Assembly (NCBI RefSeq): GCF_000179635.2
Contig: NC_014824.1
Coordinates: forward strand, 240,001 to 272,000
Origin: Ruminococcus albus 7 = DSM 20455
GTDB taxonomy: Bacteria; Bacillota; Clostridia; Oscillospirales; Ruminococcaceae
Length of the DNA: 32,000 nt
Direction of reading: 5' to 3'
The notes under the pieces are model-generated. The model had not been told where the DNA came from. It searched no databases and saw only the letters and a program-made list of their open reading frames with translations. Of the stretch, positions 1,939 through 32,000 are shown piece after piece (the stretch's first letter is position 1; each line of letters begins with the position of its first letter). A program made the position numbers and the translations under genes.

Positions 1939-1940
1939 AT

Positions 1941-7160: not shown

Positions 7161-7199
7161 GAATATCGTAAACAGCGGAATTCCGGTCGTTTCAAAGCT

Positions 7200-7319
7200 C
7201 CGTAATCACAATATATATCACATCAACTATCACATATACTATAACTTTAATCACTCTATCTATCATAAACAAGTGAAAGATAGACTGATTTTCACGCAAT
7301 TACATCTGTAATTATTTCC
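7200..7319. repeat. Origin-flanking module, copy 1 (phased ATCACA x3 plus TCTATC/GATAGA inverted repeat)
   Basis: CCGTAATCACAAT...AATCACTCTATCTATCA...GAAAGATAGACTGATTTTCAC is repeated at 7918-8063. ATCACA occurs at 7205, 7217 and 7229 (12-bp phasing). Confidence 0.75.
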
Positions 7320-7476
7320 AGAAAGCTCAAACTTGAAGCCTAAGATTCATAGGAGAGATTTCATTATATTATCTATAGCTTCGGTATAGCTAAAGAAACG
7401 AGCTTGTGGACTGTTCCAATATCTTATCAATAGAATAAATTTTTTCTTGATTTTTCTGATAAATTCTGAACAATCA

Positions 7477-7505
7477 TTGCTATTTTCTCTTTTATATGGT
7501 ATAAT
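7477..7505 (+). promoter_or_regulatory. Candidate sigma-A promoter TTGCTA-17-TGgTATAAT
   Basis: -35 at 7477-7482, 17-nt spacer, extended -10 TGG-TATAAT at 7497-7505. No protein-coding ORF follows before the iteron cluster. Confidence 0.45.
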
Positions 7506-7680
7506 AAGGCTAGAAATCTATGATATACAAGATGAGCTTACAGTATTTGAAAAAATATTTCAAGCAAGTCTGTCTAAATTATAGACAGGTATCTCATTTA
7601 TTTGTATCTTTACGAAAAACTATGATATATGCTTTTCAATATATCAGATAGCTCAGGTATATTGATAGAGAAGCGTAACT

Positions 7681-7880
7681 GAGTGGATTTCATCCGTTAG
7701 TAGAGTGGTTTTCAACCGTTAATTGAGTGGATTCCATCCGTTAGTATGGTGGTTATCATCCGTTAATTGAGTGGATTTGGGACGTTAGTCGGGTGGTTTT
7801 CAACCGTTAATTGGATGGATTCTATCCGTTAGTAGAGTGGTTTTCAACCGTTAATTGAGTGGATTCGGAACGTTAGTTCA
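7681..7880 (+). repeat. oriV iteron cluster: 9 directly abutting 21-23-bp iterons
   Basis: Alternating GAGTGGATTnnnnCCGTTAGTA and GAGTGGTTTTCAACCGTTAATT types, about 22 bp apart and all in one orientation, 315 bp upstream of the Rep_3-like gene. Classic iteron-origin layout. Confidence 0.8.
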
Positions 7881-8194: not shown

Positions 8195-9349
8195 ATGTCA
8201 AAGAAAGACGAAAAAACTCAAATATTAGTTGGGTTAGGAGATCCCAAAAAACTGGTGATTCAAAAATCAAAACCATTACTGGATATAGTGAGAATAGGAC
8301 TTCCATTAGATGCGCTCAAGCTTCTCGATGCTTATCTAGCAAAAATTGATACTTATAAGCCAGATAACAAAACTGTCGTATTCGAGGTAAAAGAGTACGA
8401 AGAGATGCTGGGTATCCAGAGACTCCGAACAGAAGTCCTAGACGCTAATCTTGATAAATTGCTTAATCACGTGATTACGCTAAAAAACACTGCCAACGAC
8501 GAAGATGATGATGTAATAAAAATCAACTTGTTTCAAATGGCTAGAAGAAGAATCAACAAAGAAACCCGAATGGGTGAGATAGTGCTGGTTTGTAATGACG
8601 TGGCTAAAGATTTTATTTTCAAATTAGATGATATTAAATACATCAAATATAATCTTGAAGATATAATCAAATTAAATTCAAGATATAGTTACACGTTATT
8701 TTTATACTTAAAAGACAATTTGTATAAAAAAACATGGACTATTAGTTATCCTGAGTTGAAGGTCAGATTAGGATGCGAATCATCGAGATATTCTATGTTC
8801 AGTTATCTAAAAAATGATATCCTCAACCCCTGTAAGAAAGAAATAGAAAGCAAAACAGGTGTCCGCTTCACTTTCGAGCCTATAAGGAAAAACCGCTCTG
8901 TAATTGCTGTAACATTCACGGCTTCGGAAGTCAAAGGTCTTACTGACAAAAAGAAGACTGGTAAGATGGTAGATACTGATAAAATGGTAGATGTTGAATC
9001 AAGTAAATCTGCATCTACTGTACCGGTTGATAATAATGAGGAAAAAGACTGGAAAGCTTTCTATGGTTCATCTGTCCTTGCAGGACTGGCTGAGCAATGT
9101 GAATACACGTTTTCTAAGAAAGAAATGCAGCTTATCCATGCTCTCCTAAAAAAGATAAATATATCGCCGGCTGAAGGAGACAGAACGGGTACATGTAGAT
9201 TCGGAAGGGAAGCGTATTTACAGGAAAAGTATCTGCGTCTGTGTCAGGAAGAAGAAAATAAAGCGAAAAACGGTGAATCTATCACTAACCGTTTTGCGTA
9301 TTTAAGAAAAATGCTTGAAAATGAAGCAGAAGAAGATTCAGATGAATAA
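8195..9349 (+). CDS. Plasmid replication initiator, Rep_3/RepB-like (iteron-binding)
   Basis: 384-aa ORF with AAAGGA SD. The N-terminal pattern (...VIQKSKPLLDIVRIGLPLDALKLLDAYLAKIDTYKP...VFEVKEYEEMLGI) resembles winged-helix Rep_3 initiators. It sits directly downstream of the tandem iterons and the AT-rich tract. Confidence 0.7.
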   Translation: MSKKDEKTQILVGLGDPKKLVIQKSKPLLDIVRIGLPLDALKLLDAYLAKIDTYKPDNKTVVFEVKEYEEMLGIQRLRTEVLDANLDKLLNHVITLKNTANDEDDDVIKINLFQMARRRINKETRMGEIVLVCNDVAKDFIFKLDDIKYIKYNLEDIIKLNSRYSYTLFLYLKDNLYKKTWTISYPELKVRLGCESSRYSMFSYLKNDILNPCKKEIESKTGVRFTFEPIRKNRSVIAVTFTASEVKGLTDKKKTGKMVDTDKMVDVESSKSASTVPVDNNEEKDWKAFYGSSVLAGLAEQCEYTFSKKEMQLIHALLKKINISPAEGDRTGTCRFGREAYLQEKYLRLCQEEENKAKNGESITNRFAYLRKMLENEAEEDSDE

Positions 9350-9421: not shown

Positions 9422-11404
9422 TTGGCAGCATCATACGACAATAACAGTATAAGTTCTCTTAAAGGAGCTGACAGAGTAAGAAAAAGACCCGGTGTTATTT
9501 TTGGCTCTAACGGTCTTGAAGGAGCTCAGCATGCTTATTTTGAGATACTGTCCAATTCCATTGATGAAGCCAAAGATGGGTACGGCAGCAAGATCACAAC
9601 TATTCTGTATGAAGATGGTTCTATAAGCGTCCAGGATCACGGTCGAGGCATTCCACTTGAATTCAATAAAACCGAAAATCGCTATAACTGGGAGCTCGTT
9701 TACTGCGAACTTTACGCAGGAGGAAAATACGATGTTGACGGAGCTAATTATGAGTACAGTCTGGGGCTTAACGGTCTTGGAGCTTGTGCAACTCAGTATG
9801 CAAGCGAGTATTTCGATGTGGAAGTTGTCCGGGATGGCTATAAATATAACCTTCACTTTGAAAAAGGTGAGAATATAGGTGGACTTGTAAAAAAGAAATT
9901 GAAATCAAAATCAGAAACCGGTACATTCCAGAAATGGAAGCCTGATCTTGAGGTATTTACGGATACAAATATCACTTATGAATATTTGCTTGATGTAAAC
10001 AAAAAACAGGCTATGGTCAATAAGGGCATAACCTTCTGCATCATGGACCAGTCTTCTGATACAAACACTGAGTATTACTATGAAAACGGAATAATTGACT
10101 ATATAGAAGAAATTTCCGACGGTAAAAATATTTCTTCTCCGTATTATATCGAGGGCTCCGGAACAGGAAGGGATAGGGAAGACCTTAAAGAGTACAAGGT
10201 CAAAGCCGAGATCGCTTTTGCTTTCAATAACGATGTACCTACCCTTCAGTATTACCACAATTCAAGCTTTCTTGAACACGGCGGAGCTCCAGATAAAGCG
10301 GTAAAGTCAGCTTTTGTAGCTGTTTTTGATAAGATTCTCAAGCAAAGAGGAAAGTATAATAAAGGCGAGACTAAAATTAGCTTTGCTGATATAGAAGACA
10401 GTCTTATAGTCATCGTAAACAGTCTTTCGACAATGACAAGCTACGAGAATCAGACCAAAAAGGCTATAAACAATAAATTTATCCAGGATTTTCTCACCGA
10501 ACTGATCAAAGAAAGACTGGAAATATGGTTTATTGAAAATGCCGGCGATTCCAACAGGGTGATCGACCAGATACTTGCAAATAAAAGAAGCAGGGAAGCC
10601 TCCGAAAAGCAAAGAATCGCACTGAAAAGAAAACTTGTAGGCAAGAGTGATTCTTGGGACAGAGTAAAGAAATTTGTAGACTGCAAGTCTAAAGATACTT
10701 CCATAAGAGAATTATTTATTGTTGAAGGTGATTCAGCTCTCGGTTCGGTAAAGATGGGCAGAGATTCAGAATTTCAAGCAGTAATGCCTGTAAGAGGAAA
10801 GATACTTAACTGCCTGAAATCGGATATTTCAAAAATTGTCAGCAGCGATATAATAATGGATCTGATAAAAGTGCTTGGCTGCGGTATAGAAATACCGATA
10901 AAAACACCCAAGAGGGGAGTCCTCTCTTTCGATATAAACAACCTGAAATGGAATAAGATAATAATCTGTACAGATGCCGATGTTGATGGATTTCAGATAA
11001 GAACTCTGATACTGACTATGATCTACAGATTATGTCCGACTCTTATAGAAGAAGGATACGTTTATATCGCTGAAACTCCACTGTACGAAATGAGATATAA
11101 AACGAGAGCTAATGAGGAAACGTTCTTCGCTTTCGATGAAAAAGAAAAAAACAAGATAATGAAAGGAAAAGATCCTTCAAGATTCTTTATTCAGCGTTCA
11201 AAAGGACTTGGCGAAAATACTGCGGAATTTATGTGGCTCACTACGATGGATCCTAAAACAAGACGTCTTATAAGGGTTACATCTGAGGATGCAAAAAAAA
11301 TGCTTGAGTACTTTGAATTATACCTTGGAAATAATGTAGCTGCAAGAAAAAGCTACATAGAAGAAAACGGACATCTATACACTGATGATCTTGATCTCGA
11401 TTAA
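9422..11404 (+). CDS. Type IIA DNA topoisomerase, subunit B (GyrB/ParE-like)
   Basis: TTG start 8 nt after AGGAGA. Motifs: VRKRPGVIFGS, EILSNSIDEA (ATPase N-box), DHGRGIP, GLNGLGA, Toprim EGDSALGS, PVRGKILN, IICTDADVDGFQIRTLILT. Confidence 0.9.
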   Translation: MAASYDNNSISSLKGADRVRKRPGVIFGSNGLEGAQHAYFEILSNSIDEAKDGYGSKITTILYEDGSISVQDHGRGIPLEFNKTENRYNWELVYCELYAGGKYDVDGANYEYSLGLNGLGACATQYASEYFDVEVVRDGYKYNLHFEKGENIGGLVKKKLKSKSETGTFQKWKPDLEVFTDTNITYEYLLDVNKKQAMVNKGITFCIMDQSSDTNTEYYYENGIIDYIEEISDGKNISSPYYIEGSGTGRDREDLKEYKVKAEIAFAFNNDVPTLQYYHNSSFLEHGGAPDKAVKSAFVAVFDKILKQRGKYNKGETKISFADIEDSLIVIVNSLSTMTSYENQTKKAINNKFIQDFLTELIKERLEIWFIENAGDSNRVIDQILANKRSREASEKQRIALKRKLVGKSDSWDRVKKFVDCKSKDTSIRELFIVEGDSALGSVKMGRDSEFQAVMPVRGKILNCLKSDISKIVSSDIIMDLIKVLGCGIEIPIKTPKRGVLSFDINNLKWNKIIICTDADVDGFQIRTLILTMIYRLCPTLIEEGYVYIAETPLYEMRYKTRANEETFFAFDEKEKNKIMKGKDPSRFFIQRSKGLGENTAEFMWLTTMDPKTRRLIRVTSEDAKKMLEYFELYLGNNVAARKSYIEENGHLYTDDLDLD

Positions 11405-13911: not shown

Positions 13912-14053
13912 GGATCCTGAAAGTGCCGCTGAACGCTTTGAAAGCAAATTAAGTCAAGTAATTCTTATTATTTTCGCTTATTTTCAAGTATAATATCATT
14001 AGATCAGATCTTGATATGTGGATTTTTAACTATATATCAAAATCTGATTTTTT
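13912..14053 (+). repeat. Module P copy B (duplicate of orf128 3' end + promoter + degraded hairpin)
   Basis: GGATCCTGAAAGTGCCGCTGAACGCTTTGAAAGCAAATTAA... matches 11766 onward. It is interrupted after the hairpin T-tract by the IS605-type left-end relic at 14054. Confidence 0.85.
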
Positions 14054-14171
14054 ATCCTCTTTAGGCAAGAAGACTCCCAACTCTTAGGTGGGAGATGAAT
14101 TGCGTTCCTTGCTCACCGGACTTTTCACTTTGCTCATAGCATAAAATATTCAGTCGAATAAAATGGATTGG
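14054..14171 (+). mobile_element. Relic left end (LE) of the IS200/IS605-family element, copy 1
   Basis: ATCCTCTTTAGGCAAGAAGACTCCCAACTCTTAGGTGGGAG...CAGTCGAATAAAATGGA aligns with 20399-20520 and with the reverse complement of 23120-23241. Truncated on its right side, 11 bp before the IS66 insertion at 14183. Confidence 0.5.
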
Positions 14172-14246
14172 ATCGATGTTTGGTAAGCGTATAACCCCCC
14201 GCATCATAAAAGCAAACAGCCGGGCAGATAACACCCGGCTGTAACA

Positions 14247-14785
14247 TCATATTCTGGCTTTGATTTCTCCATTTCTCTTTGCGTCCATGTATATTTCTTT
14301 GAAATCAGCTTTGCTGTTCGGACCGAATATGATCGGCATAACAGATACAAGGCCATCGGAAATGATCGCATTTTTAAATGGCAGAAGCGCTGCATCAAGC
14401 AAAGTTGGCATCGGTGCATTTCTCAGCATTTCCTCCCAACTGCTGACAATGCCGTTTACAAGAAAAACAGAATTGTCATCGATCGATATAAATACCGATC
14501 CCTTTTTCAAATGTCGCTCAATGATAAATCTGCCGGTGATGCACCCTTTCCAGCTTTTAAGTATCTCCATGTGTTATTCGGGCAGATCCGATCGCTCAAG
14601 ATAATCATCAATGATCCATGTCCGTTCCCATAAAAAGTGGGCAACCTCCGCAGCATCCTGTGGGTCGATCATTCCTTGCCCGAAATAATCTTCCTCAGGA
14701 AGTATATGATATTCTCTGTTCACATAGTCAAGCAGTGGAAAAACAGTTCATAAAACAGCTTTGCATCTTCATTACTAAGTTTCAT
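14247..14785 (-). pseudogene. Degenerate passenger ORF at the 3' end of IS66
   Basis: ATG at 14785 with GGAGGG SD overlaps the tnpC stop. The reading frame MKLSNEDAKLFYELFF / LLDYVNREYHILPEE...LERSDLPE / (TAA) HMEILKSWKG... needs one frameshift (A5 run at 14739-14743) and read-through of a stop. Only the last 107 aa (14247-14570) are an open ORF. Confidence 0.35.
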
Positions 14786-16285
14786 TTTCTTCCCTCCATG
14801 GTAATAATATCGTTCCCGCAGGCTGTGAAAACAGCTCGGTCAGGTATTTCTCAGCATCAACACCGTTCGCCTGTGCAGTTGAAATGATCGAATACAGCGT
14901 TGCACTTGATCTGGCTCCGTTTGCTGTATTTGAAAACAGCCAATTTTTTCGGCCTAACGCAAACGGTCTTATTGCGTTTTCGGCTCTGTTGTTGTCGATA
15001 GGCACGTCTCCGTTTTCAAGAAACGTGTAAAGATATTTCCGTTCATTCAACGCATATCTTACTGCATCTGTCAGCTTGCCCTTACCACTGACCTGAACAT
15101 TTTCAAGCCACGCAAAAACTCGTCAAGCAAAGGCTTTACCTTCACAAGGCGCTGTTTATATCTGTATTCTGTGGAGCTGTCGGCAAGCAGATTTTCTTCG
15201 TGATATATCTTGTTGAAATATTCTACTGCCTTTGCCGCAACAGAAGTGCTGTGCAGCTTTTGGTCGTTCGGAAGAGCCTGAATAAAACCACGCCTTGCAT
15301 GAGTCATACAGCCGCATCGCTTAGCACCCTCGACTGCATTGTAGGCATCGTATCCGTCACAGATAAGATAGCCGATAAATCCTTTCAGGAAATTCGAGGC
15401 GTGCTCACCCTTTCGTGTCGGCTGATAATCGAAAATGATGATGCTCCTGTCATTCATTTTGCCGTTGCAGTAGACCCACATTCTTGATGTCGTGGTAGGC
15501 TTTCGGCCTTCCTCGTGAAGCACCTGAACGGTCGTTTCATCGGCATGGATCATCTGCCCTGCGATAAGCGTCTCATGCATTTTCTCCACAATCGGCAAAC
15601 ACCATTTTTCGGCAGCAGTGCCTACCCAATTAGACATAGTCGCTTTGAGCAGAGGTATGTTTTTGGAATTAAAGTCCTTTTCCTGACGGTGCAGAGGTAC
15701 TGACTTTGCATATTTTTCGTAGATGATATGAGCCAGAAGTTCGGGAGAGCAATAGCTTCCCGGGATCATAGCGTGAGGATATGGCGCACGGATGATATGA
15801 CAAGGTTCGTCCCTTTCTTCGGGCTTTTCTCCGCACTCGGGACACTTGTACTTATGTACTATATGCCTGCGGATATGATATTTTGGCGGCGTAAATATAA
15901 GTTCATCGTAAGCCTTTTCGGGAGTCAGTTCTTCCATTTCGGCGCCGCATATTTCGCATACCGGGTTGTCAATTTTGTGATGTTCTTCTTTTACAGGCAG
16001 ATTGTTCATCCATTCATCGTGAGTGCGTTTTTTCTTGCGCTTGTGTTCGGGAACAGTAATTGTTTCGGCAGATTTAGCTGCGGATTTTTCTTCATTGTTT
16101 CCGAACATGGAAAGCTGAACACCGAACTCCTTTTCCATAACAACAGATGTCTGCTCTGTTTTTCTTCCGAATATCTGCTTTCTGAACCACGCTAACTGCT
16201 GATTGGCAAGTGCTAGTTCTTCCTTGAGAACAGCGTTTTCATTACGGAGCGATACAATTTCCGATGTCATATTTGGTTCGGACAT
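14775..16285 (-). pseudogene. tnpC: IS66-family transposase (tnpC), disrupted by a 1-nt frameshift
   Basis: N-terminal leucine-zipper region (LRNENAVLKEELALANQQLAWFRKQIFG), CPECGEK zinc finger, DETTVQVL, ICDGYDAYN. The C-terminal block NNRAENAIRPFALGRKNWLF is in another frame (ORF 14775-15050). The shift restores ...LLDEFLAWLENVQVSGKGKLTDAVRYALNERKY at the A5/T5 run 15115-15119. Start taken at 16285 (GGAGGGG SD). Confidence 0.85.
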
Positions 16286-16377
16286 AAAGCACCCCTCCGT
16301 TCGTGATGATACTTTAATGATACCACGAAAAGAGGGGCTTTTCAAGCACATATTCTGAATATTCGGTAAGTATTGCC

Positions 16378-16734
16378 TTAATACAGCGCCCCCGGCTTTC
16401 CCTCACGGATAGCCTTCGGCTGCTCTATTTTCAAGCCTTCCAGAAGCCAGCGAATTTGCTGAGATGTGAGCATTACTGCTTCGGTCTCACTGCGCGGCCA
16501 CTGGAATCTTCCGTTGTCAAGGCGCTTGTACAACAGCAGAAAACCATCGCCCTCCCACAGCAGACCTTTGATGCGGTCACAACGTCTGCCGCAGAACAAA
16601 AACAATGCTTTCGAGAACGGGTCAAGTCGAAGCTGAGCCTGAACGATAGTCGCAAGTCCGTCTATCCCGCGTCGAAGGTCGGTGTATCCCGTAACAAGAT
16701 AGACCTGTGCGTCCGCTGCCAGATCATTCAGCAT
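16378..16734 (-). CDS. tnpB: IS66 Orf2-like accessory protein (TnpB of IS66; unrelated to IS605 TnpB)
   Basis: 118 aa. ...VYLVTGYTDLRRGIDGLATIVQ...LFLFCGRRCDRIKGLLWEGDGFLLLYKRLDNGRFQWP... is the characteristic IS66 Orf2 sequence. Confidence 0.9.
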   Translation of the reverse strand: MLNDLAADAQVYLVTGYTDLRRGIDGLATIVQAQLRLDPFSKALFLFCGRRCDRIKGLLWEGDGFLLLYKRLDNGRFQWPRSETEAVMLTSQQIRWLLEGLKIEQPKAIREGKPGALY

Positions 16735-17045
16735 AGCTCATGCACCAAAGCGGTCAGAGTGTCCGCAGATATATCTGCCGGAAGAGATATTTGAAGTCCG
16801 TTTTTCTCAATGCGGATATTTTCGTTTGAGCAAGGAACTGATACAGGAACGATGGTCGGAGAATTTTCGATATACTTTTCACGAACTTTTCTTAGGCGGT
16901 TGTAATACGTGTTTGGCTTGATCCCTTTTTCTTTGCACCATTCCCGGATCGTCAGACCGCTTGCCTGCTGTGCTTTGATCTGCGCAGACCATTCCTGAAG
17001 CTGCATTTCTTTTTTGATTGTTGTGATGGATGTTGTTTTGTCCAT
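16728..17045 (-). CDS. tnpA: IS66 Orf1 (helix-turn-helix accessory protein TnpA)
   Basis: Start chosen at 17045 (MDKTTSITT...) with AAGGAGG 7 nt upstream. HTH-like SGLTIREWCKEKGIKPNTYYNRLRK. Its stop overlaps the tnpB start. Confidence 0.8.
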   Translation of the reverse strand: MDKTTSITTIKKEMQLQEWSAQIKAQQASGLTIREWCKEKGIKPNTYYNRLRKVREKYIENSPTIVPVSVPCSNENIRIEKNGLQISLPADISADTLTALVHELC

Positions 17046-17191
17046 ACCTGTTACCTCCTTGTCTAATCGTCTCCAATGAACTCCATGGATCAATTTGGAT
17101 TATTCAATTTACTTCATGGTGTTCCTTGGAGTTTATTATACTTTATTAGACTTCGGTGGGGTAGGTGCTGGGGGTTATACGCTTACGATGT

Positions 17192-17277: not shown

Positions 17278-18261
17278 ATGTTTGATAAAATCGATCTCAA
17301 TGATTTCTGGGACAGCAGCAGTGAATATGATTATCTTAAACTGGAGCCTTTTTCGGAAGAAAAACTTCGGGCTATAGAAAAAGAGATCGGATATAAATTA
17401 CCCGAATCCTATATCGCCCTGTTGCGTGTGCAAAATGGAGGCTGCCCCAAAAATAAAAGAGTCGGAAATACGTCATGGCTGCTCGAAGGCATTTACGGTA
17501 TCTGCAAAGGTGAAAGCGAATTCTGGGAAAATGAGGGGGTAGCTTATCCGAAGATAGGTGTACCTATATGTATAAGCGACTATGACTGTGACAGGATATT
17601 TTTAGATTATCGTGAGTGTGGAAATGACGGAGAACCCAGAGTAGTGGGGATCTCTCCCGAAATGGATACGATCGAATTTATTGCCAAGGACTTTGAATCG
17701 TTCATAAATATGCTTGTCCCTGCAAGATATGATGAAAACGACGAGATTATCGAAGAAGACGTTGTAAAAATAGATCCTTATGAAGGAGTACAGTTCACTC
17801 CCGTAGAAGGAGAGCAGAAAAAAGAATTGGATCGATATATATGGAAAGGCATGCCGGGATTTTCCTTTTTCACTGTATTCTGCATACTGATAGGCATCGT
17901 ACTTGATTTATTTGATACAGATAATAAACTGTTATCGTTATTATCAAACCTGGCATATATCGCAGCCGCACTTGGTTTCCTTATCACGATAGGTGGTATT
18001 ATATATTGTTCTTCTCAGAGCAAGCGTTCTTACGAATGTTATGTTGATACTGTTGATATTGTCTGGGAGGCAAATGAGCCGATCAGTAAAACGAAATATA
18101 ACCAAGAAAAGAGAACGTTCTTTTTTCACCTGACAAAAAGCAAGGCTGAAAGTTACCCAAACACCGAGGGGTTTAAAGAGGGCGACAGAATAAGAGTATA
18201 CCGAGTGATAAACGATAAAAACGGAGAGGTTATGCTTATGAAAGAGCAGGATCAAAAATGA
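17278..18261 (+). CDS. SMI1/KNR4 (SUKH-1) domain protein fused to a two-helix membrane region and a C-terminal domain
   Basis: The N-terminus FSEEKLRAIEKEIGYKLPESYIALLRVQNGG is the typical SMI1_KNR4 signature. Hydrophobic helices FSFFTVFCILIGIVLDLF and LAYIAAALGFLITIGGIIY. AAGGAG SD. Confidence 0.75.
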   Translation: MFDKIDLNDFWDSSSEYDYLKLEPFSEEKLRAIEKEIGYKLPESYIALLRVQNGGCPKNKRVGNTSWLLEGIYGICKGESEFWENEGVAYPKIGVPICISDYDCDRIFLDYRECGNDGEPRVVGISPEMDTIEFIAKDFESFINMLVPARYDENDEIIEEDVVKIDPYEGVQFTPVEGEQKKELDRYIWKGMPGFSFFTVFCILIGIVLDLFDTDNKLLSLLSNLAYIAAALGFLITIGGIIYCSSQSKRSYECYVDTVDIVWEANEPISKTKYNQEKRTFFFHLTKSKAESYPNTEGFKEGDRIRVYRVINDKNGEVMLMKEQDQK

Positions 18262-18713: not shown

Positions 18714-20336
18714 ATGAAAAAAATAATTACGAGTATGCTGGCTGTTTCAATGATTACAGGAATGGCTTGTATGTCTGCTGGTGCAGAAGCTGAATACAAT
18801 AATGCTAATTCAAATGTGATGGTCGCAAATGAAAATCATATCAGTGCAACCAATCCTGTAGTTGATCTTCTGAAAAGTGCAACCAACGGAAAAGATAGTC
18901 CTTATAATCATTATACAGTATATGATGGTTCGGACGCAAAAAGTTTTAAGGTCAAAGGCAGAACGTACTACTATGGCATTACCCAAAATGGAAATATAAG
19001 CTCATTCTCATTGAATACCCAAAAGGTCAAAAAACTGTCATTCAAGGTTGCACATCTAGATAATTCTAGTCTGGTGGATGATAGTACACTTACCATATAT
19101 CTCGACGGAGAAAAATATAAAACTTATACCTTAACTTATAATATGACATATCTTCCTATAGATATTGATACAACTGAATTTAGCAAGGTAAGATTTGATT
19201 TTGGTGAATACAAGGATTCAAGGTTTGCTTTGGTAGATTTCAAAGTAGATGGTAAAACTGCCCCGAAAGGCGCAGATATACCTAAATATACGTCGGTTGA
19301 TAGCTTAATTAACAGTGCGTACGATACTGATACATTTTGGTTATCCGAAACGACGATATATGACAGCAGTAAAAAACTTGGGTTTAAAATGAAAGGCAGA
19401 ACATACTACAATGGTATATCTATGCGTTCTGGTGGTGGTTTCTCACTAAACACCGAGAATGTAGATTCAATATCTTTTGATCTTAGTCATGTTGATAACT
19501 CGGGAATTGGAGATTCTGCTGTAAAGATATATTTGGATAATGAACTTTACGAGAATAAAGCAATAAGCATTGCACCAAACACCCCTATAAAAAGATATAC
19601 ATTAGATCTGAAAAACATAGATAATCTACGCATTGAAACAAATAGATATACAGAGACATCATATGCAGTGGGTAATATTGAGTTCAATAATATTAAATCT
19701 CAGAAAAGCTATATAGTGCCTACCTATGATGACGCCATAGATTTTATTAACAGCAAATTCAATGACAGCGGCGTAACGGTATATGACAATACTCAAAAGC
19801 TAGGTTTTAATATGGATGGAGTAAATTACAAACAAGGTTTGCTAATGAGTGCTGGAGGCACGGTATCATTCAATACTGAGAGTATAAAGAAACTGTCATT
19901 TAAACTTGGTTATATAGATAACTCAGTTCCTTATTCGGGTAATAAATTACAGGTTTATCTTGATGGTGAACTCAAGGAGATATCGATTGAAAAAAATCAA
20001 AAAAATCAAAAGACCCAGAATGTTGATCTTGATGTATCAAATGTTAAATGTGTAAAGATCAATTTTTCAGACAAATATGCTAATACCAAATACGGTTTGG
20101 CAGATATTGCTATCATCAAAGATGAATCAAAGGTCAATATCCCAAAAGGCGATGTGAATTTGGACAATGTAGTTAATATTACGGATATCACAAAAGTTGC
20201 AGCGCATATCAAGGGTAAAAAGGTTTTGACAGGCGATAGTCTGAAGGCAGCAGATGTTAATGACGACAACAAAATAAATATCACGGATATAACAAAGATA
20301 GCAGCTCATATAAAGGGTCGTATAATTCTGAAGTAA
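18714..20336 (+). CDS. Secreted dockerin-containing protein with three NPCBM-like repeats (cellulosome-type cargo)
   Basis: Signal peptide MKKIITSMLAVSMITGMACMSAGA. Three modules of about 145 aa (…YD.S.K.GFKMKGRTYY.GI…SFSLNT..V..LSF.L.H.DNS…IYLDGE…). C-terminal type I dockerin duplicate GDVNLDNVVNITDITKVAAHIKG / ADVNDDNKINITDITKIAAHIKG. Confidence 0.85.
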   Translation: MKKIITSMLAVSMITGMACMSAGAEAEYNNANSNVMVANENHISATNPVVDLLKSATNGKDSPYNHYTVYDGSDAKSFKVKGRTYYYGITQNGNISSFSLNTQKVKKLSFKVAHLDNSSLVDDSTLTIYLDGEKYKTYTLTYNMTYLPIDIDTTEFSKVRFDFGEYKDSRFALVDFKVDGKTAPKGADIPKYTSVDSLINSAYDTDTFWLSETTIYDSSKKLGFKMKGRTYYNGISMRSGGGFSLNTENVDSISFDLSHVDNSGIGDSAVKIYLDNELYENKAISIAPNTPIKRYTLDLKNIDNLRIETNRYTETSYAVGNIEFNNIKSQKSYIVPTYDDAIDFINSKFNDSGVTVYDNTQKLGFNMDGVNYKQGLLMSAGGTVSFNTESIKKLSFKLGYIDNSVPYSGNKLQVYLDGELKEISIEKNQKNQKTQNVDLDVSNVKCVKINFSDKYANTKYGLADIAIIKDESKVNIPKGDVNLDNVVNITDITKVAAHIKGKKVLTGDSLKAADVNDDNKINITDITKIAAHIKGRIILK

Positions 20337-21693: not shown

Positions 21694-21900
21694 GTGACAT
21701 CCTCCCCCGCCTAAAGAGGCGGGGGGCGTCCCCTAACCTCAGCGAGTTCGGTTCTCGTTCGATAGTACTAATGCACTAAGCATAAGCGAGCTAACCCCGT
21801 GTGTCCCACGGTTTTTATGATTTAAGGCTACGCTAATGCTATTCGCATGCCTTCGTTTCTTATATTTATTGCAGCATTTACATCTCTGTCATGGTGAGTT
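21694..21900 (-). ncRNA. Predicted TnpB omega (right-end) RNA scaffold
   Basis: By analogy with characterised TnpB systems, the RNA spans the tnpB 3' end and the RE. The region is GC-rich and structured (GGGGACGCCCCCCGCCTCTTTAGGCGGGGGAGGATGTCAC). The 5' boundary is not determinable by eye. Confidence 0.4.
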
Positions 21901-22955
21901 CCGCATTCGGGACAGTCCCATGCTCTTATAGCAAGGTTCTTTGTTTCCTTATTGATGTAACCACAGCACGAACAAGTCTGACTGCTCGCAAAGAATTTAT
22001 CTATCTTTACAAGTCTTTTGCCTTGTTCTTCCAGTTTGTACTTCAGGAATGTTACAAACATTCCCCAGCCGTTATCAGAAACCGACTTGCCGAATTTAAG
22101 TGCCTGAGACATTGCTTGCATGTTAAGATCTTCTATACATACACAATCATAGGCATTGGCTATCTGTCTTGACTGTTTATGTAGAAAGTCCTTTCGTTGA
22201 TTTGCTACTTTCTCATGCATTTTAGCAACCTTGATACGTTGTTTATCACGGTTTTTAGAGCCTTTCTGCATAAGAGAAAGTTTTCTTTGTTCTCTTTTTA
22301 GCTTTTTTTCGGCTCGTCTATAGTATCTGGGGTAGGCAGGTTCATTGCCGTTGCTGTCTTTGTACAGCTCATGCATCGAAAAGTCAAGCCCTAAGAAGTC
22401 ATGCAGTTCCTGTTCCTGTACTTGGTTTTCGTACTCATACAGAATACTTGCATAGTATTTTCCGCTTGGAGTCTGACTTACTGTCACAGACTTGAGAACA
22501 TATTCATCAGGAATGTTCCTGTGCTGTTTTACTTTGACTTGTCCAACTTTAGGTAATTTCAAGTATCCATTGGATATGGCTATGTTACCATTGATACAAA
22601 CGGTAGAATAGCTGTTCTTTTTACATTTTTTTGATTTAAACCTGGGAAATCCTGTTTTAGGCTGTTTGAAAAAGTTCTGAAACGCTGTATCCAGGTGTCG
22701 AAGCGACTGCTGCAATGATACGCTGTCCACTTCCCGTAAGAATGAGTATTTCTCCATTTTCTTAAGTTCAGCCATTTCTTTAGCAGAGGCATTGTAACTT
22801 AAAGTTGTCTCATATTCTTTATACTGCTTGATTCTTTTGTATAACCAATAGTTATATACCAATCTCACACAGCCGAAGGTTTTGGCAAACAAAATCTTTT
22901 GCTCGTTATTTGGGTGTATTCTGAATTTAAATGCTTTGTTTGCCATAGTGTTCAC
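21828..22955 (-). CDS. tnpB: TnpB RNA-guided nuclease (OrfB_IS605 + Zn ribbon)
   Basis: 375 aa. N-terminal FKFRIHPNNEQKILFAKTFGCVRLVYNYWL. RuvC motifs LGLDFS, CIEDLN, HDRDVNAAINI. Zinc ribbon CSCCGY...CPECG. Confidence 0.9.
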   Translation of the reverse strand: MNTMANKAFKFRIHPNNEQKILFAKTFGCVRLVYNYWLYKRIKQYKEYETTLSYNASAKEMAELKKMEKYSFLREVDSVSLQQSLRHLDTAFQNFFKQPKTGFPRFKSKKCKKNSYSTVCINGNIAISNGYLKLPKVGQVKVKQHRNIPDEYVLKSVTVSQTPSGKYYASILYEYENQVQEQELHDFLGLDFSMHELYKDSNGNEPAYPRYYRRAEKKLKREQRKLSLMQKGSKNRDKQRIKVAKMHEKVANQRKDFLHKQSRQIANAYDCVCIEDLNMQAMSQALKFGKSVSDNGWGMFVTFLKYKLEEQGKRLVKIDKFFASSQTCSCCGYINKETKNLAIRAWDCPECGTHHDRDVNAAINIRNEGMRIALA

Positions 22956-23322: not shown

Positions 23323-23340
23323 TGTGTCACGCGTGACACA
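23323..23340. promoter_or_regulatory. Solitary perfect palindrome TGTGTCACGCGTGACACA (operator or parS-like site)
   Basis: Identical to array units. Centred about 30 nt downstream of the -10 box, in a roadblock or operator position. Confidence 0.6.
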
Positions 23341-23490: not shown

Positions 23491-25680
23491 ATGCCGAGAA
23501 AAAAAGCGGAAACTGCTGTTATTGACAGGACCGGTTATGATGAGCACATGAGAGACATAGTTGTATCAGAAGTTCTGACAGAAAACTATATGCCTTATGC
23601 CATGAGTGTTATAAAATCGAGAGCGCTGCCGGAGATAGACGGATTTAAGCCTGCACACAGAAAACTTCTGTATACAATGTATCAGATGAAGCTTTTTGAT
23701 AAAAAGACGAAATGTGCCAATATTGTTGGTCAGACCATGCAGTATAACCCACACGGAGACTCCAGTATCTACGAAACACTCGTAAGATTGACCGAAGATA
23801 ATGAATCCTTGCTTACTCCTCTTATTTCTTCTAAAGGCAATTTCGGTAAGCACTATTCAAGAGATATGGCTTATGCAGCATACAGATACACAGAGGCAGG
23901 ATTTACAAAGATAGCAGCAGAGTTATTTGAGGGTATAAACAAAAACGCCGTAGACATGGCAGATAACTTCGATGCTACAAAGAAAGAACCTGTGCTTCTG
24001 CCAACAAGCTTTCCTAATATACTCGCTATGCCTACTCTGGGAATAGCTGTCGGCATGGCTTCCAATATTGCATCCTTCAACCTTAAAGAACTGTGCGAAG
24101 CTACTATCGAGTATATAAAGGATCCTAAAACAGATATTCTGGATATTATGCCCGGCCCTGATTTTTCTACCGGGGGAGACATCCTGTTTGATCGAGATGA
24201 AATGGACAAGATCTACAGAACAGGGAAGGGGAGTATCGTTGTAAGGAGCAAATATACAGTCGATAAGAAAAACAGAAGAATTGAGATAAGAGAGATTCCA
24301 TATAGTACGACTACCGAAGCTATCATCGAAAATGTTATAAGCCTGTGTAAAAGCAAAAGAATAATGGACATCGATGATATAAGAGACGATACTGATAAAA
24401 ACGGACTTCTTATCACTATTGAGTATAAGAGATCAGCTGACCCTGACGAGATCATGAATAAGCTTTACAGTCTGACTCCGCTTCAGGACACCTTCAGCTG
24501 CAACTTCACAATGCTTATAAACAATAATCCTGTTGTTCTTGGAGTATACGGTATACTCGATGAATGGATAAAGTTCCGTACTGAATGCATCAAGAGAGAG
24601 CTTACATATGATCTTGAAATATTCAGAAAGAAACTCCATCTTATGGAAGGCCTACAGAAGATCCTTTTAAATATCGATAAGGCAATTAAGATCATACGCG
24701 GTACAAAACTGGATAAGGATGTTATCCCCAACTTGATGAAAGGCTTTGATATAGACAAGACTCAGGCTGAATACATCACAGAAATAAGACTCAGAAACAT
24801 AAACGAGGAATGGATCCTTGACAGAACAAAGGAAATCGAGAAAATAAAAGAAGATATAAAGAAAAATGAAACGATAATAAGCAGTGATAAAGCCCTGAAA
24901 AAGCAAATAATCAAGAAACTGAAGGAAATAGCAAATAAAGAGGATTATATCAAACCCAGAAAAACAACTATCAATACGGAAGTTAAGGTTGAAAAAGTAA
25001 CTGTAATTGAAGAAGTGAAAAATTATGATGTAAAGATCATAATTAGTGAACACGGATACGTCAAGAAAGTTCCCACAAGTACGTATAAGGAAGATACAGA
25101 GTATAAGCTGAAAGACGATGATCGTATCCTAAAGATCATAGACGCTCAGAACATCGGAGAAGTACTTACCTTTACTGATAAAGGTGTAGTCTATAAAACA
25201 AAGATCAGCGATATAGAAGTTTGCAAAGCGGGAGAATTTGGAACATTTATCCGTTCTGCAGCCGAAATACCCGACGATGAAAAAACTGTCTTTATAACAG
25301 CAACAGGAGATTTCTCGGGTAACATGATAGTTGTTTTCGAGAATGGTAAAGTTGCGAAGTTCCCGTTAAACGTTTATGAGACAAAACAGAACAGAAAAAA
25401 ACTGATAAATGCCTTTTATACGAACGTAAAGCCCGTCGCATTCTATCATGTTCTTGAAGACGTCAATATAAAGATGAAGAGCGATGGCGGAAAGCTGCTG
25501 ATCTTTAATTCAGAAATGATAAATCTAAAGAATTCAAAGACAACACAAGGAACTCAGGTAATGAAGCTTCCAAAGGAAACAAAGATCCTAAAGTCTAGGA
25601 TCATTGAGGAACTTGATAAAAAAAGCAGTAAAATAGTAGTGAAAAGCATCCCTGCAAGTGGTTTTTCAAGAAAGAAATAA
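23491..25680 (+). CDS. Type IIA DNA topoisomerase, subunit A (GyrA/ParC-like, short C-terminal domain)
   Basis: YMPYAMSVIKSRALPEIDGFKPAHRKLLYTMY, NPHGDSSIYETLVRL, catalytic-Tyr motif AAYRYTEAG. 729 aa. No QRRGGKG-type GyrA box seen in the C-terminal part. Confidence 0.9.
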   Translation: MPRKKAETAVIDRTGYDEHMRDIVVSEVLTENYMPYAMSVIKSRALPEIDGFKPAHRKLLYTMYQMKLFDKKTKCANIVGQTMQYNPHGDSSIYETLVRLTEDNESLLTPLISSKGNFGKHYSRDMAYAAYRYTEAGFTKIAAELFEGINKNAVDMADNFDATKKEPVLLPTSFPNILAMPTLGIAVGMASNIASFNLKELCEATIEYIKDPKTDILDIMPGPDFSTGGDILFDRDEMDKIYRTGKGSIVVRSKYTVDKKNRRIEIREIPYSTTTEAIIENVISLCKSKRIMDIDDIRDDTDKNGLLITIEYKRSADPDEIMNKLYSLTPLQDTFSCNFTMLINNNPVVLGVYGILDEWIKFRTECIKRELTYDLEIFRKKLHLMEGLQKILLNIDKAIKIIRGTKLDKDVIPNLMKGFDIDKTQAEYITEIRLRNINEEWILDRTKEIEKIKEDIKKNETIISSDKALKKQIIKKLKEIANKEDYIKPRKTTINTEVKVEKVTVIEEVKNYDVKIIISEHGYVKKVPTSTYKEDTEYKLKDDDRILKIIDAQNIGEVLTFTDKGVVYKTKISDIEVCKAGEFGTFIRSAAEIPDDEKTVFITATGDFSGNMIVVFENGKVAKFPLNVYETKQNRKKLINAFYTNVKPVAFYHVLEDVNIKMKSDGGKLLIFNSEMINLKNSKTTQGTQVMKLPKETKILKSRIIEELDKKSSKIVVKSIPASGFSRKK

Positions 25681-29491: not shown

Positions 29492-29507
29492 AGGAGCTTA
29501 ATAGGAA

Positions 29508-29535
29508 AGGGCTGTTGATGTGCAGCTCTTTTTTT
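29508..29535 (+). terminator. Rho-independent terminator of the operon
   Basis: AGGGCTG-TTGATGTG-CAGCTCT stem followed by T7. Confidence 0.65.
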
Positions 29536-29571
29536 GTGGGGGAGGGGAGTTGTTTGAAATTTGTGTCACGC

Positions 29572-29589
29572 GTGACACAAAATCACTTA
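29572..29589. promoter_or_regulatory. Solitary perfect palindrome TGTGTCACGCGTGACACA
   Basis: Lies 37 nt after the operon terminator, flanked by TTT/AAA like the copy at 26060. Confidence 0.6.
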
Positions 29590-29695
29590 TAAACTACAAA
29601 AAGATTTCAGTGTATTATATTTGCCTAAAAACAAATCATTGTTTATGGTAAAAATAGAGTTTTTTGTTAAAAAACGGTTATTTATGTTCGTTTGC

Positions 29696-29723
29696 TTGAC
29701 ATATCATGATTTCATTGTATAAT
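29696..29723 (+). promoter_or_regulatory. Promoter TTGACA-16-TATAAT driving the riboswitch leader
   Basis: -35 at 29696-29701, -10 at 29718-29723. Confidence 0.65.
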
Positions 29724-29769
29724 TATAATAAGGCTAGTTATAATAATTCAGTATTACAATTAGCTGAAA

Positions 29770-29863
29770 ATATAAAAGCAAAATTGCTGAAAAGCAGTGA
29801 CGCAAAGCCAAGGGTCTAAACCGTATGGTATGACAGCCGGTTGCTATAGATAGGTAGGTTATA
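29770..29863 (+). promoter_or_regulatory. c-di-GMP-I (GEMM-I) riboswitch aptamer
   Basis: AAAGCAAAAUUGCUGAAAAGCAGUGACGCAAAGCCAAGGGUCUAAACCGUAUGGUAUGACAGCCGGUUGC...AUAGGUAGGUUAUAGG. Contains the GCAAA element, a GAAA-tetraloop hairpin, GACGCAAAGCC, CUAAACC, and GACAGCCGG(U)UGC / GGUAGGUAG elements. These are shared with the Vc2 and clostridial GEMM-I sequences as I recall them. Confidence 0.75.
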
Positions 29864-29892
29864 GGCAATGCGTTTTGGCGCATTGTCTTTTT
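29864..29892 (+). terminator. Riboswitch expression-platform terminator
   Basis: CAATGCG-TTTTGG-CGCATTG stem followed by TCTTTTT, ending 30 nt before the ATG at 29922. Confidence 0.7.
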
Positions 29893-29921
29893 GTTTTAAC
29901 AGATTGAGAAAGGATGATTTT

Positions 29922-30584
29922 ATGAAAAAGAAAGTATTAGCCTTATCAGCTGCTATAACTATGATTTTGGGTACTGGAGGAGTATTTCCAAAGGCTAAAT
30001 TGGATTTTAGTTCATTGATTTCAGTATACAGTTGGGAAACTAATGAGGGTTATGAATATGAAGTGATTAATCGCGATACGATTTGTATCACAGGATATAG
30101 TGGTTATGATGCAGAAATAATAATACCTGATAAAATAGATGGTAAAAAAGTTACTAGCTTAGGGGAAAATTCTTTTAGGTATACCGGAATTAAAAGCATA
30201 ACGATACCCGATGGCGTAAAGAGTATAGGGGAAAATGCTTTTGATAATTGCGAATACCTGACAAGCATAACTATTCCAGAAAGTGTAGAGAAAATAGAAG
30301 GCTATACTTTTTGGGGTTGTGATAATCTGGAGAGCATAACGTTACCCAATAGCATAACTAGCATAGGGCAATGTGCTTTTGGCGGCTGCAAAAGCCTGAC
30401 AAGTATTACTATACCATATAGCGTTACAAATATTGGAGATTATGCTTTAGGATATAAAATGTTATTAAGGTTTGATGAATATGAGAAACTCCCCAATTTC
30501 AAAATTTATTGCTACAAAGACGCCCAACACATCACCTTATCAACACTAAAAAATACCGAAATTCAGCATTTTTTCAAATGCTGA
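29922..30584 (+). CDS. Secreted BspA-type leucine-rich-repeat (LRR_5) surface protein, probably 3'-truncated or fused
   Basis: The ATG at 29922 (GAAAGGA SD) is preferred over the track start 29868, which lies in the terminator. Signal peptide MKKKVLALSAAITMILG. Repeats ITIPDGVKSIGENAF / ITIPESVEKIEGYTF / ITLPNSITSIGQCAF / ITIPYSVTNIGDYAL. The last about 20 aa look unrelated (junction with the integrated element). Confidence 0.8.
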   Translation: MKKKVLALSAAITMILGTGGVFPKAKLDFSSLISVYSWETNEGYEYEVINRDTICITGYSGYDAEIIIPDKIDGKKVTSLGENSFRYTGIKSITIPDGVKSIGENAFDNCEYLTSITIPESVEKIEGYTFWGCDNLESITLPNSITSIGQCAFGGCKSLTSITIPYSVTNIGDYALGYKMLLRFDEYEKLPNFKIYCYKDAQHITLSTLKNTEIQHFFKC

Positions 30585-30589
30585 ATTTC
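30558..30589. terminator. Perfect 12-bp inverted repeat between convergent genes
   Basis: GAAATTCAGCAT-TTTTTCAA-ATGCTGAATTTC. Overlaps both stop codons and could terminate either strand. Confidence 0.5.
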
Positions 30590-32000
30590 ACCTCAATACC
30601 TGTTTCATCGGATATAAGCACGACATCAATCATCGCTGCCGCTATATCGTGCTTTTCCTGAACCGTCAGTTTATCCCACTGCTTCATAGGTTCTTCCAAA
30701 GGCTTTGTGTCGATTGCTTTACGCTTACGGCACATAGTCTGCAATTTTTTATCAAGCTTCGATTTCTGTTCGTGCAGGGCGCTCACACGCTTCTGAATGT
30801 AGTCAAAAAGTACGCTGTCCGCATCAGCGAGCTTTTCCATGAGCTTCTGGATCTCACCGTCAATGTGAATGATCTCTGTCTTGATACTCTCCGTTTCGGT
30901 GTCGGGCTTGCTGTCCTCACGCTTTGCGATTTTGAGCTGTTCGATACGCTTCTGCATTTCTTCCAGCACAGCGTCCTCGACCTGTTTCGGCTTTAACTGA
31001 ATGGGCGGAGTGGGACAGCCGTTCAGCGTGAACTTGCCGTAGTCGATGAAGCGGTGATACACACACCTTTTCTGTTCGCACAGTGATTGAAGTGCATCGC
31101 ATAGCCGCAGCAGGCACATTTCACCATACCCACAAGCCAAGAGTTCATAGCCTTGCCGTTTGTCGGGAACTTGCTCTGGTGCGACTTCCTGTCCTGCACT
31201 CTCAGCCACGTTTCCGCAGGCACAAGCCCCTCATGGTATGCTACCTTGACGAAATGCGTATCATCAAGCCCAGCGTGGATAAACAAGCCGTGAATGCCGT
31301 CATAGGCTTCAATATCGTCAAGCATTTCATATCCTTTGGAAAGAAAATAGCGGTAGACCTCTTTGTCAGCCCTCACATACAGCGGATTTTCAAGGATACG
31401 GCTCAGGTGCGACCTGTCAAGATTGGAAATGCCTGTTTTCGTGCGTGGTGTCGGTCTTGAAGCATTGATACCGTTCTCCGTCATGTAGCGGATAATATCG
31501 GTCAGAGAGTTTTCGGGATGCTGATACAGGTCATACGCCACACGCACCGCCTCCGCATTCTCCGAGGGAACAAGCACCGAGCCTGTTTTGCCGTTAATAG
31601 TCCGTCTTTCGGGAGTGTAGCCGAACTGAACTTTACCGCCCTGATAGAATCCTGTTTCTCTTGCCTTAGTCTGGAAAGCATCGGCTACACGGGCAGCGAT
31701 AGTCTCACGCTCAAACTCTGCGAAGTTTAGCAGATTGTTTCGCATCATACGCCCCTCTTTTGTCTCCGTATTGAACGGCTCGGAGAGGGAGTAGACGGTC
31801 ACACCATAGCGGTCAAGCTCGTCCGTGATATTCAAGTATTCCCTCATATTTCTACTGAAACGGTCATACTTTTTCACGATAATTCTGCTGATAAGCCCCT
31901 CACGGGCATCGCTCATCATCTGCATAAATGCGGGACGGTGCATCACATCTTTGCCCGACTTGCTGTCATCGCAGTAGATACGATAGTCGCATTCGCCCAC
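30574..32000 (-). pseudogene. Large serine recombinase (5' end outside the window), apparent 1-nt frameshift
   Basis: Resolvase-domain sequence (DDSKSGKDVMHRPAFMQMM...IVKKYDRFSRN...LNFAEFERETIAARV), recombinase domain, and zinc ribbon KCACCGYAM in ORF 31023-32000. The continuation (EQKRCVYHRFIDYGK...coiled coil...) is in ORF 30574-31209. The frame switch lies between about 31060 and 31095, near a T4 run at 31068-31071. Visibly more GC-rich than the flanks. Confidence 0.85.

Follow-up and report, generated by a model that had tools for sequence, protein, structure and literature searches.

Background

The class I cyclic di-guanosine monophosphate (c-di-GMP-I) riboswitch Cd1 (Cdi-1-3), found upstream of the Clostridioides difficile flgB operon, is a transcriptional attenuator and a proven OFF switch: its aptamer and terminator coexist, and a competing antiterminator, 'transiently stable' according to nuclear magnetic resonance and modelling (PMC9262584), is built from nucleotides of an aptamer strand (PMC9262584, PMC6366702). 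In the ON switch pilM, by contrast, aptamer and terminator are mutually exclusive (PMC9262584). A leader of the same Rfam family as Cd1, likewise organised as a transcriptional attenuator in a host belonging to the Clostridia, is described here at positions 29696-29921 of a 32,000 nt stretch of DNA from Ruminococcus albus 7 (contig NC_014824.1, positions 240,001 to 272,000 of the forward strand), the whole of which is referred to below as the window. As in Cd1, the aptamer and terminator of this leader are separate, and a transient antiterminator is predicted to be built from aptamer-strand nucleotides. Unlike that of Cd1, the antiterminator partner is mainly the junction core, ACGCAAAGCC; completion of the aptamer and the decision point are separated by ~26 nt rather than ~60 nt; and the leader precedes a gene for a secreted leucine-rich repeat (LRR) protein on a plasmid, whereas Cd1 precedes flagella genes on a chromosome.

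Other described systems share further features with this locus. The C. difficile riboswitches Cdi1_4 and Cdi1_5 are c-di-GMP-I elements carried by the prophages phiCD630-1 and phiCD630-2, in the PhiCD119 lysis-module region, and exert negative control on the transcript that follows through premature termination (PMC3649979, PMC7699646); these control an antitoxin RNA and lysis-module genes, whereas the leader in the window precedes an LRR gene on a Rep3 megaplasmid. Similarly, Bc2 of Bacillus thuringiensis, upstream of cap, is a Firmicute riboswitch in which a class I aptamer and a terminator precede the gene of an adhesin-type surface protein (PMC6366702), although Bc2 is an ON switch for a collagen adhesin and the gene in the window is of the BspA-type LRR_5 family. 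The GEMM-Ib or A20 variants (Gs1761, Gmet_0970, Cbe 1-2 and the Vc2 mutant G20A) have an adenine at position 20 with A47 and C92 kept, as is found here. The Geobacter GEMM-Ib members among them are switches selective for cyclic GMP-AMP (cGAMP) that turn on exoelectrogenesis genes, whereas the window leader has an OFF-type architecture and its closest homologues carry G20. Cbe 1-2 shares with the window aptamer a host within the Clostridia, on which basis bispecific binding of c-di-GMP and 3',3'-cGAMP is expected (PMC6140456).

The locus was brought to attention by an earlier note, made from the letters of the sequence, which held it notable that an adhesin-like cargo gene on a mobile replicon should be wired into the second-messenger network of the host. 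The riboswitch is real, but this claim is weaker than stated, as c-di-GMP-I riboswitches on mobile elements and upstream of adhesins, like natural A20 variants, have already been described. Two twists of modest interest are a derived G20A change and a predicted antiterminator that pairs with the aptamer core, and the current understanding of GEMM-I riboswitches is unchanged by this leader.

Results

A class I c-di-GMP aptamer

When the whole window was scanned on both strands with cmscan against Rfam 15, the only match was to RF01051 (c-di-GMP-I, or GEMM-I), at 29767-29848 on the forward strand, with a score of 71.9 bits against a gathering threshold of 35 (E 1.9e-12) and an untruncated alignment spanning model positions 1-87 of 87. 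The identification of a GEMM-I aptamer in the earlier note, together with the Rfam score check it had proposed, is thereby upheld. A single instance of the core motif GCAAA-N(8-30)-ACGCAAAGC is present in the window, against none in 100 shuffled sequences; a chance match or mis-scored motif was rejected on the Rfam score and this shuffle control.

Laying the Rfam consensus structure onto the sequence gave 20 mappable pairs, all of them canonical. These form a short helix (29778-79:29802-03), a hairpin (29783-88:29793-98) capped by GAAA at 29789-92, and a long second helix (29806-09:29839-42, 29812-13:29837-38, 29814-16:29832-34 and 29821-23:29826-28). The tetraloop-receptor motif CUAA/UAUGA agrees with the consensus in the cmscan alignment, as GGGUCUAA and UAUGACAGCC, such that the two-helix architecture of RF01051 is present with all its pairs, its GNRA tetraloop and the receptor (CUAA / UAUG) in helix 2. 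The leader aptamer is a genuine class I c-di-GMP riboswitch aptamer and a full-length member of RF01051. Some of the hallmarks by which it had been recognised need amendment: AUAGGUAGG lies at 29850-29858, outside the aptamer, the counterpart of the Vc2 sequence 'UAGGUAGC' in the leader being UAUGACAGC; and GCAAA is present, but preceded by A rather than by the consensus G.

Promoter, terminator and start codon of the transcription unit

The last open reading frame (ORF) upstream of the leader stops at 29491, and the sequence of this operon of small ORFs then reads into a terminator-like hairpin (GGGCTG/CAGCTC) followed by T7 at 29509..29535 on the forward strand. As the upstream operon has its own terminator, the riboswitch unit is regarded as a separate, independent transcript. 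Its sigma-70 promoter, TTGACA-16-TATAAT at 29696..29723 (+), matches the consensus at 12 of 12 positions; the window has six such promoters in all, this one included, where 0.09 would be expected. Transcription probably starts at around 29730.

The intrinsic terminator occupies 29863..29898 (+), and consists of an 11 bp stem (29863-73:29878-88) with five GC pairs, a UUUU loop and a U-tract at 29889-98, with a folding energy of -15.2 kcal/mol; the stem is followed by TTTTTGTTTT (UUUUUGUUUU). Its predicted pair probability in the full-length ensemble is 0.78-1.0. The earlier proposal that an intrinsic terminator serves as the expression platform is consequently sustained, although the distance of 30 nt given for its separation from the start codon requires correction, as 33 nt separate the stem, and 23 nt the U-tract, from the ATG.

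A strong ribosome binding site (RBS), GAGAAAGGA at 29905..29913 (+), lies 8 nt before this ATG and is unpaired in all predicted folds, for which reason translational control is unlikely and was rejected as a mechanism. The note had also been right to doubt the start of the automatically listed ORF: the ATG at 29868 falls within the 5' arm of the terminator, whereas the in-frame ATG at 29922 follows the RBS and opens MKKKVLALSAAITMILG... (MKKKVLALSAAITMILGTGG...), a signal-peptide-like N-terminus. A homologous leader, L272, conserves both this RBS and this start. The public draft annotation carries a 238-aa version of the protein with the start mis-called, which is now corrected.

Taken as a whole, 29696-29921 is read as the promoter and leader of a monocistronic transcript, bearing a functional c-di-GMP-I riboswitch that acts by attenuation and is most likely of the OFF type, a reading to which a probability of about 0.6 is assigned.

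Predicted direction and mechanism of switching

No nucleotide belongs both to the aptamer, whose Rfam match runs to 29848, and to the terminator, which begins at 29863; the gap between them is 14 nt measured from the last position of the match and 18 nt measured from the GGUUGC of the aptamer 3' side. When the native aptamer is enforced in folding the terminator still forms. Because the two structures do not overlap and are able to coexist, ligand binding has no visible means of blocking termination.

A different picture emerges from the shorter, ligand-free transcript that ends at 29876, immediately ahead of the terminator 3' arm. Its minimum free energy (MFE) structure, at -29.1 kcal/mol, is 12 kcal/mol below the fold in which the native aptamer is enforced, and pairs GACGCA (29799-804) with UGCGUU (29869-74) and GCC (29807-09) with GGC (29864-66). 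Nine of the 11 nucleotides of the terminator 5' arm are paired to the aptamer in this structure, eight of them to the core and one to U29829. The duplex between arm and core has an energy of -13.1 kcal/mol, compared with a mean of -5.3 kcal/mol for shuffled arms (z -4.0), and none of 200 shuffles performed as well; the complementarity of the terminator 5' arm to the aptamer core is far above chance. On the evidence of the truncated-transcript MFE and the duplex shuffle test, the core GACGCAAAGCC (29799..29809, +) is proposed to be the antiterminator strand of the ligand-free state. A short local antiterminator, 29841-48:29860-68, was considered as the main pairing and rejected, having just -2.4 kcal/mol alone; it is a possible auxiliary, analogous to the pairing in the homologous leader L327.

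At low ligand concentrations, the core GACGCA...GCC (29799-29809) would pair with the 5' arm GGC..UGCGUU (29864-29874) once the arm has been made, and this metastable antiterminator would hold the arm while RNA polymerase crosses the U-tract, allowing the LRR gene to be transcribed. With ligand bound, the core would be locked within the aptamer and the 5' arm freed, so that the terminator would form and transcription stop near 29893-29898. A kinetically controlled OFF attenuator is the most likely mechanism on these folding models. The earlier note had left the direction of switching undecided. That high signal turns the LRR gene off is likely, judging from the models and from the analogy with Cd1; it is proposed because of the non-overlapping layout, the complementarity between arm and core, and the same layout in four homologous leaders. 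In C. difficile, every one of the seven class I riboswitches that function is an OFF switch too (PMC6366702).

An adenine at ligand-contact position 20

Vc2 numbering was placed on the leader by way of the Vc2 sequence, the A that follows GACGC being taken to be A47. The equivalent of G20, which contacts G-alpha of c-di-GMP, is then position 29777 (+), where cmscan aligns the consensus G (model position 11) to an A that lies directly 5' of the G-C/C-G pairs. The other ligand contacts are kept, A29804 corresponding to A47 and C29844 to C92. Three other, independent assemblies carry a leader without any difference from that of the window, and because they have the same A, A29777 is not a sequencing error. 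In the four homologous leaders (L272, L271, L326 and L327) this column is G throughout, and among 91 unique related metagenomic aptamers it is G in 81 and A in 10.

According to the literature, G20 reads G-alpha of c-di-GMP, and cGAMP riboswitches carry A there (PMC6140456, PMC6456294). The Vc2 G20A mutant binds c-di-GMP at 53 nM and cGAMP at 120 nM, whereas the affinity of wild-type Vc2 for c-di-GMP is picomolar; Cbe 1-2, a natural A20 aptamer of Clostridium beijerinckii, binds c-di-GMP at 30 nM and cGAMP at 463 nM (PMC6140456). The A20G mutation in Gmet_0970 returns selectivity to c-di-GMP (PMC6456294). In its positions, A29777 with C29844, the window aptamer agrees with the definition of GEMM-Ib (A20 with C92 kept) given in PMC6140456.

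By analogy with these aptamers, the ligand is most likely c-di-GMP, which is expected to be bound less tightly than by the G20 relatives, alongside cross-binding of 3',3'-cGAMP, because the base that would read G-alpha is A rather than G; for the same reason, strict specificity for c-di-GMP is not assured. The distance from completion of the aptamer to completion of the terminator 5' arm is ~26 nt because a spacer hairpin of ~17 nt, found in L272, L271 and L326, is missing from the window copy. A29777 and this short decision window would together raise the switching threshold.

Homologous leaders and their cargo

Homologous leaders were sought by scanning metagenomes for the sequence pattern and by searching via homologues of the neighbouring gene. 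Four were found: L272 and L271 in metagenomes, and L326 and L327 on plasmid contigs syntenic with 23.5-29 kb of the window, the L326 contig being k141_73245 of sample ERZ27247035, 59,065 bp long. All are RF01051 members scoring 71-75 bits and have a common promoter layout, with perfect TTGACA/TATAAT promoters upstream of L272 and L271, and the first hairpin is identical in three and has two one-sided changes in L272. The separation between aptamer and terminator is 18-36 nt in all five leaders, counting that of the window. In the MFE structure of the truncated transcript, the terminator 5' arm pairs with aptamer nucleotides in five of five, the partner being the core in four; L327 has a different terminator, the 5' arm of which finds its partner in GGUUGC on the 3' strand of the aptamer. 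In an unrelated GEMM-I leader, L220, the terminator arm contains a perfect 9 nt complement of ACGCAAAGC.

The genes behind these leaders are varied. At the L326 locus (14012-16486 of its entry) the leader precedes the gene for a 1793-aa protein with VWA (confirmed), LRR_5, Big_2 and dockerin hits, and at that of L272 (4748-8190 of its entry, reverse strand) the gene for a 1088-aa protein with SdrD_B-like and dockerin domains. The L327 cargo, a protein of >654 aa, had no Pfam match. The theme of the lineage is large, secreted, dockerin-bearing, adhesin-like proteins, in keeping with reports of dockerin proteins on R. albus plasmids and of LRR modules in ruminococcal dockerin proteins (PMC4081043). 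The L326 and L272 genes suggest a module of riboswitch, RBS and signal peptide that has been combined with different adhesin-like cargo. Ruminococcus megaplasmids and islands appear to put large secreted dockerin, LRR and VWA proteins under cyclic-dinucleotide control, as the window, L272, L326 and L327 suggest. The L272 cargo gene is flanked by an ORF judged from its translation to resemble a tyrosine integrase and by a small serine recombinase.

Aptamers of the RF01051 family with A20 were also present on two viral contigs from IMG/VR, L181 (6512-8761) and L167 (8005-8088), with scores of 78.8 and 82.2 bits respectively. Three lineage-specific or A20-specific patterns gave no hits on viral contigs. 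Judging from the translations alone, the riboswitch of L181 precedes a secreted protein followed by holin-like and endolysin-like proteins, the arrangement of a lysis module.

The downstream LRR gene

The gene controlled by the leader, at 29922..30584 (+), is predicted to encode a secreted 220-aa BspA-type protein. Its residues 78-203 match the Pfam family LRR_5 (PF13306) across profile positions 1-125 of 127, scoring 116.4 bits against a cut-off of 27.7 (E 1e-33), in agreement with the earlier description of the product as a BspA-type LRR protein. The further description of it as a surface protein is borne out by the signal-peptide-like N-terminus but not by the remainder, as the protein appears to be C-terminally truncated, and a Pfam scan of the 220 aa found no anchoring domain (dockerin, LPXTG or cell-wall-binding repeats). 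Alignments to P0067 and P0084, homologues combining LRR_5 with dockerins (Dockerin_1), stop near residue 202-217, beyond which the dockerins follow.

The apparent truncation coincides with an abrupt change in the surrounding DNA. The last ~15-20 codons of the ORF enter a junction hairpin at 30557-30590, and at ~30,600 the G+C content climbs from ~33% to ~50%, where a large serine recombinase gene, split into two overlapping frames, starts on the opposite strand. A foreign insertion has probably replaced the native C-terminus of the LRR protein, the dockerin having been lost to this adjacent element. The recombinase ORFs (30574-32000, reverse strand) contain Resolvase, Recombinase and Zn_ribbon_recom domains and have a G+C content of ~50%, compared with ~35% for the plasmid.

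Identical copies of the LRR protein are found only in L001-L005 (100%, the same element), and its next-best relatives have at most 64% identity over part of the length. A blastn search with 29500-30600 against phage and plasmid collections gave no match. The strict GEMM motif was absent from all 80 LRR_5 homologue loci. Given this and the outcome of an Rfam scan of 16 Firmicutes LRR_5 loci (0/80 motif, 0/16 Rfam), the idea that the riboswitch might be a general feature of BspA/LRR_5 genes was rejected; the link between riboswitch and LRR_5 is specific to the plasmid lineage and not to the protein family.

Alternative explanations

Several observations weigh against reading the leader as a functional OFF switch. 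In predicted folds of the complete transcript the terminator is the more stable structure whether or not the aptamer is formed (pair probability ~1), and for this reason the antiterminator would have to be a kinetic trap. The direction of switching is drawn from thermodynamic prediction and analogy, and PMC6366702 cautions against carrying the direction of class I riboswitches over from one species to another, Bc2 being ON. The P1 helix of the aptamer is short, AU-rich and ambiguous (UAUA/UAUA or alternatives); conservation of the arm pairing, L327 and L220 excepted, is weak evidence because the five leaders share ancestry; Rfam scanning detected no GEMM-I in the 16 Firmicutes LRR_5 homologue loci; and the change from G to A could, in conjunction with the truncated downstream gene, reflect decay of the locus. 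An ON switch, in which ligand would cause read-through and high c-di-GMP induce the LRR protein, would have precedents within class I in Vc2 and in Bc2, which lies upstream of the B. thuringiensis collagen adhesin (PMC6366702). It would accord with the terminator being formed in the ligand-free full-length MFE, and with the expectation that adhesin-like proteins rise with c-di-GMP, following the common rule that this messenger favours adhesion. An ON switch is nevertheless improbable, given that the aptamer shares no nucleotide with the terminator and leaves it intact when enforced, that the sole strong competitor of the terminator uses core nucleotides which the ligand would sequester, and that the layout matches that of Cd1 and not that of pilM.

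The suspicion of decay can be extended to the whole locus, the leader being in that case an intact but unselected relic controlling a truncated, anchor-less LRR fragment, with G20A a neutral or mildly deleterious change. The LRR ORF does lack the dockerin of its homologues and end in a junction hairpin beside a high-G+C insertion, the window copy has lost the spacer hairpin of its relatives, and close homologues of the LRR protein are wanting. A relic is unlikely, however, where the promoter retains 12 of 12 consensus positions, the aptamer pairs, tetraloop-receptor motifs, terminator, RBS and signal-peptide-like N-terminus are all intact, and the LRR_5 domain is complete (profile positions 1-125 of 127); furthermore, A20 variants are functional riboswitches in nature, represented by 10 of the 91 related aptamers and by the two on viral contigs. 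The same substitution can be interpreted as a gain rather than a loss, with 3',3'-cGAMP, alone or together with c-di-GMP, as the physiological ligand of a GEMM-Ib-type sensor that arose from the change of G20 to A. GEMM-Ib aptamers that bind cGAMP are recognised by A20 in combination with the usual A47 and C92, A20G restores the selectivity of Gmet_0970 for c-di-GMP (PMC6456294), and the presence of G in the four closest homologues marks the A as a derived, specific change. Against this, A20 is necessary but not sufficient for selectivity, since the affinity of Vc2 G20A and Cbe 1-2 for c-di-GMP equals or exceeds that for cGAMP (PMC6140456); the known cGAMP-selective members belong to Geobacter and its relatives; and no cGAMP synthase (CD-NTase or Hypr GGDEF), nor any other GGDEF gene, was seen among the genes of the 32 kb window. 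On balance, cGAMP as the physiological ligand is quite unlikely. Very improbable, too, is the specific scenario in which the change made an in vivo sensor of 3',3'-cGAMP supplied by a Hypr-GGDEF enzyme or by a CD-NTase of the cyclic-oligonucleotide-based antiphage signalling type (CBASS) fired by phage infection. Were it true, the megaplasmid would turn off a secreted or surface LRR protein on a signal outside the c-di-GMP pool of the host, and the leader would represent a riboswitch that responds naturally to cGAMP in a Firmicute and on a mobile replicon.

The locus offers a clean, testable plasmid-borne second-messenger riboswitch in a cellulolytic genus of the rumen. A29777 and the G of the four homologous leaders constitute a ready pair with which one-nucleotide retuning of affinity and specificity can be studied in a native platform.

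The surrounding replicon

The extrachromosomal nature of the DNA, also claimed in the earlier note, is corroborated by a Rep3 initiator, a large iteron region and plasmid-type topoisomerase II genes. The initiator gene, at 8195-9349, matches Rep3_N (1e-18) and Rep3_C (5e-13), and an iteron region lies upstream of it, with an iteron array at 7676-7866 and ~90 iteron-like repeats of GTGGATTnnATCCGTTAAT in the same orientation across 1969-7855 (0.1 expected). This combination of Rep3_N and Rep3_C with direct iterons of ~22 bp upstream is that of a Rep3/iteron-type plasmid. A member of the Rep cluster bears the name plasmid replication initiation protein from Ruminococcus albus, and the window proteins are recorded on a 420,706 bp contig. 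The sequence features thus support, as the likely identity of the replicon, a Rep3-type Ruminococcus megaplasmid; its description as mobile is supported to that extent, but no conjugation genes were seen in the window.

Directly upstream of the initiator gene, some 5.9 kb (1940-7870) contains no ORF >70 aa. Between the iteron-like repeats lie 36 copies of the palindrome GTGTCACnnGTGACAC, where 0 would be expected, and the two are organised in higher-order repeats of 132 and 176 nt. This region, far larger than iteron origins usually are, may combine origin, copy-control and centromere-like functions. A copy of the 16 bp palindrome, GTGTCACGCGTGACAC, lies at 29563..29578, 133 nt upstream of the -35 box of the riboswitch promoter, and is a candidate operator- or centromere-like site. 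There are 39 copies in the window against 0 expected, of which 36 fall within the iteron region (1942-7063) or along its margins and the others are at 23324, 26061 and 29563; the distribution suggests a putative replicon-wide site for a DNA-binding protein. Palindromes outside the array (1287, 23324, 26061 and 29563) lie 130-170 nt upstream of the starts of transcription units, namely ORF 1410, the GyrA-like gene, the ORF 26229 cluster and the riboswitch promoter, and at three of these four sites the palindrome extends to 22 bp as TTTGTGTCACGCGTGACACAAA.

Both subunits of a type IIA topoisomerase are present, GyrB-like at 9422-11404 and GyrA-like at 23491-25680 (PHROG 'DNA topoisomerase II', E 1e-241 and 1e-223), their genes lying 12 kb apart with insertion sequence (IS) elements and cargo in between. 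On plasmids, the best matches of these subunits are carried by large replicons of Firmicutes, namely Monoglobus (176 kb), Vescimonas (861 kb), Bacillus (84-165 kb) and Clostridium botulinum (~200 kb). An IS66-like element on the reverse strand at 15071-17093, judged from the translations of its three ORFs (transposase-like, 426 aa; TnpB-like, 118 aa; small TnpA-like), sits in an island of 42-47% G+C. The draft contig JHYT01000073.1 starts right after this IS66 copy, consistent with an assembly break at a repeat.

Members of the DHH/DHHA1 superfamily include nanoRNases as well as phosphodiesterases of cyclic dinucleotides, with NrnA and GdpP as examples. A phosphoesterase of this kind is encoded at 164-1249, with weak Pfam hits, and a link between it and the riboswitch on the same replicon is conceivable. 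The remaining genes include accessory cargo in the form of a SUKH/SMI1-KNR4 immunity-type protein (17278-18261), and a secreted NPCBM-repeat protein with a type I dockerin (18714-20336), which has a perfect promoter at 18648. Between the region of this dockerin protein and the GyrA-like gene, an IS200/IS605-family OrfB/TnpB (Cas12f-like) is encoded on the reverse strand at 21828-22955.

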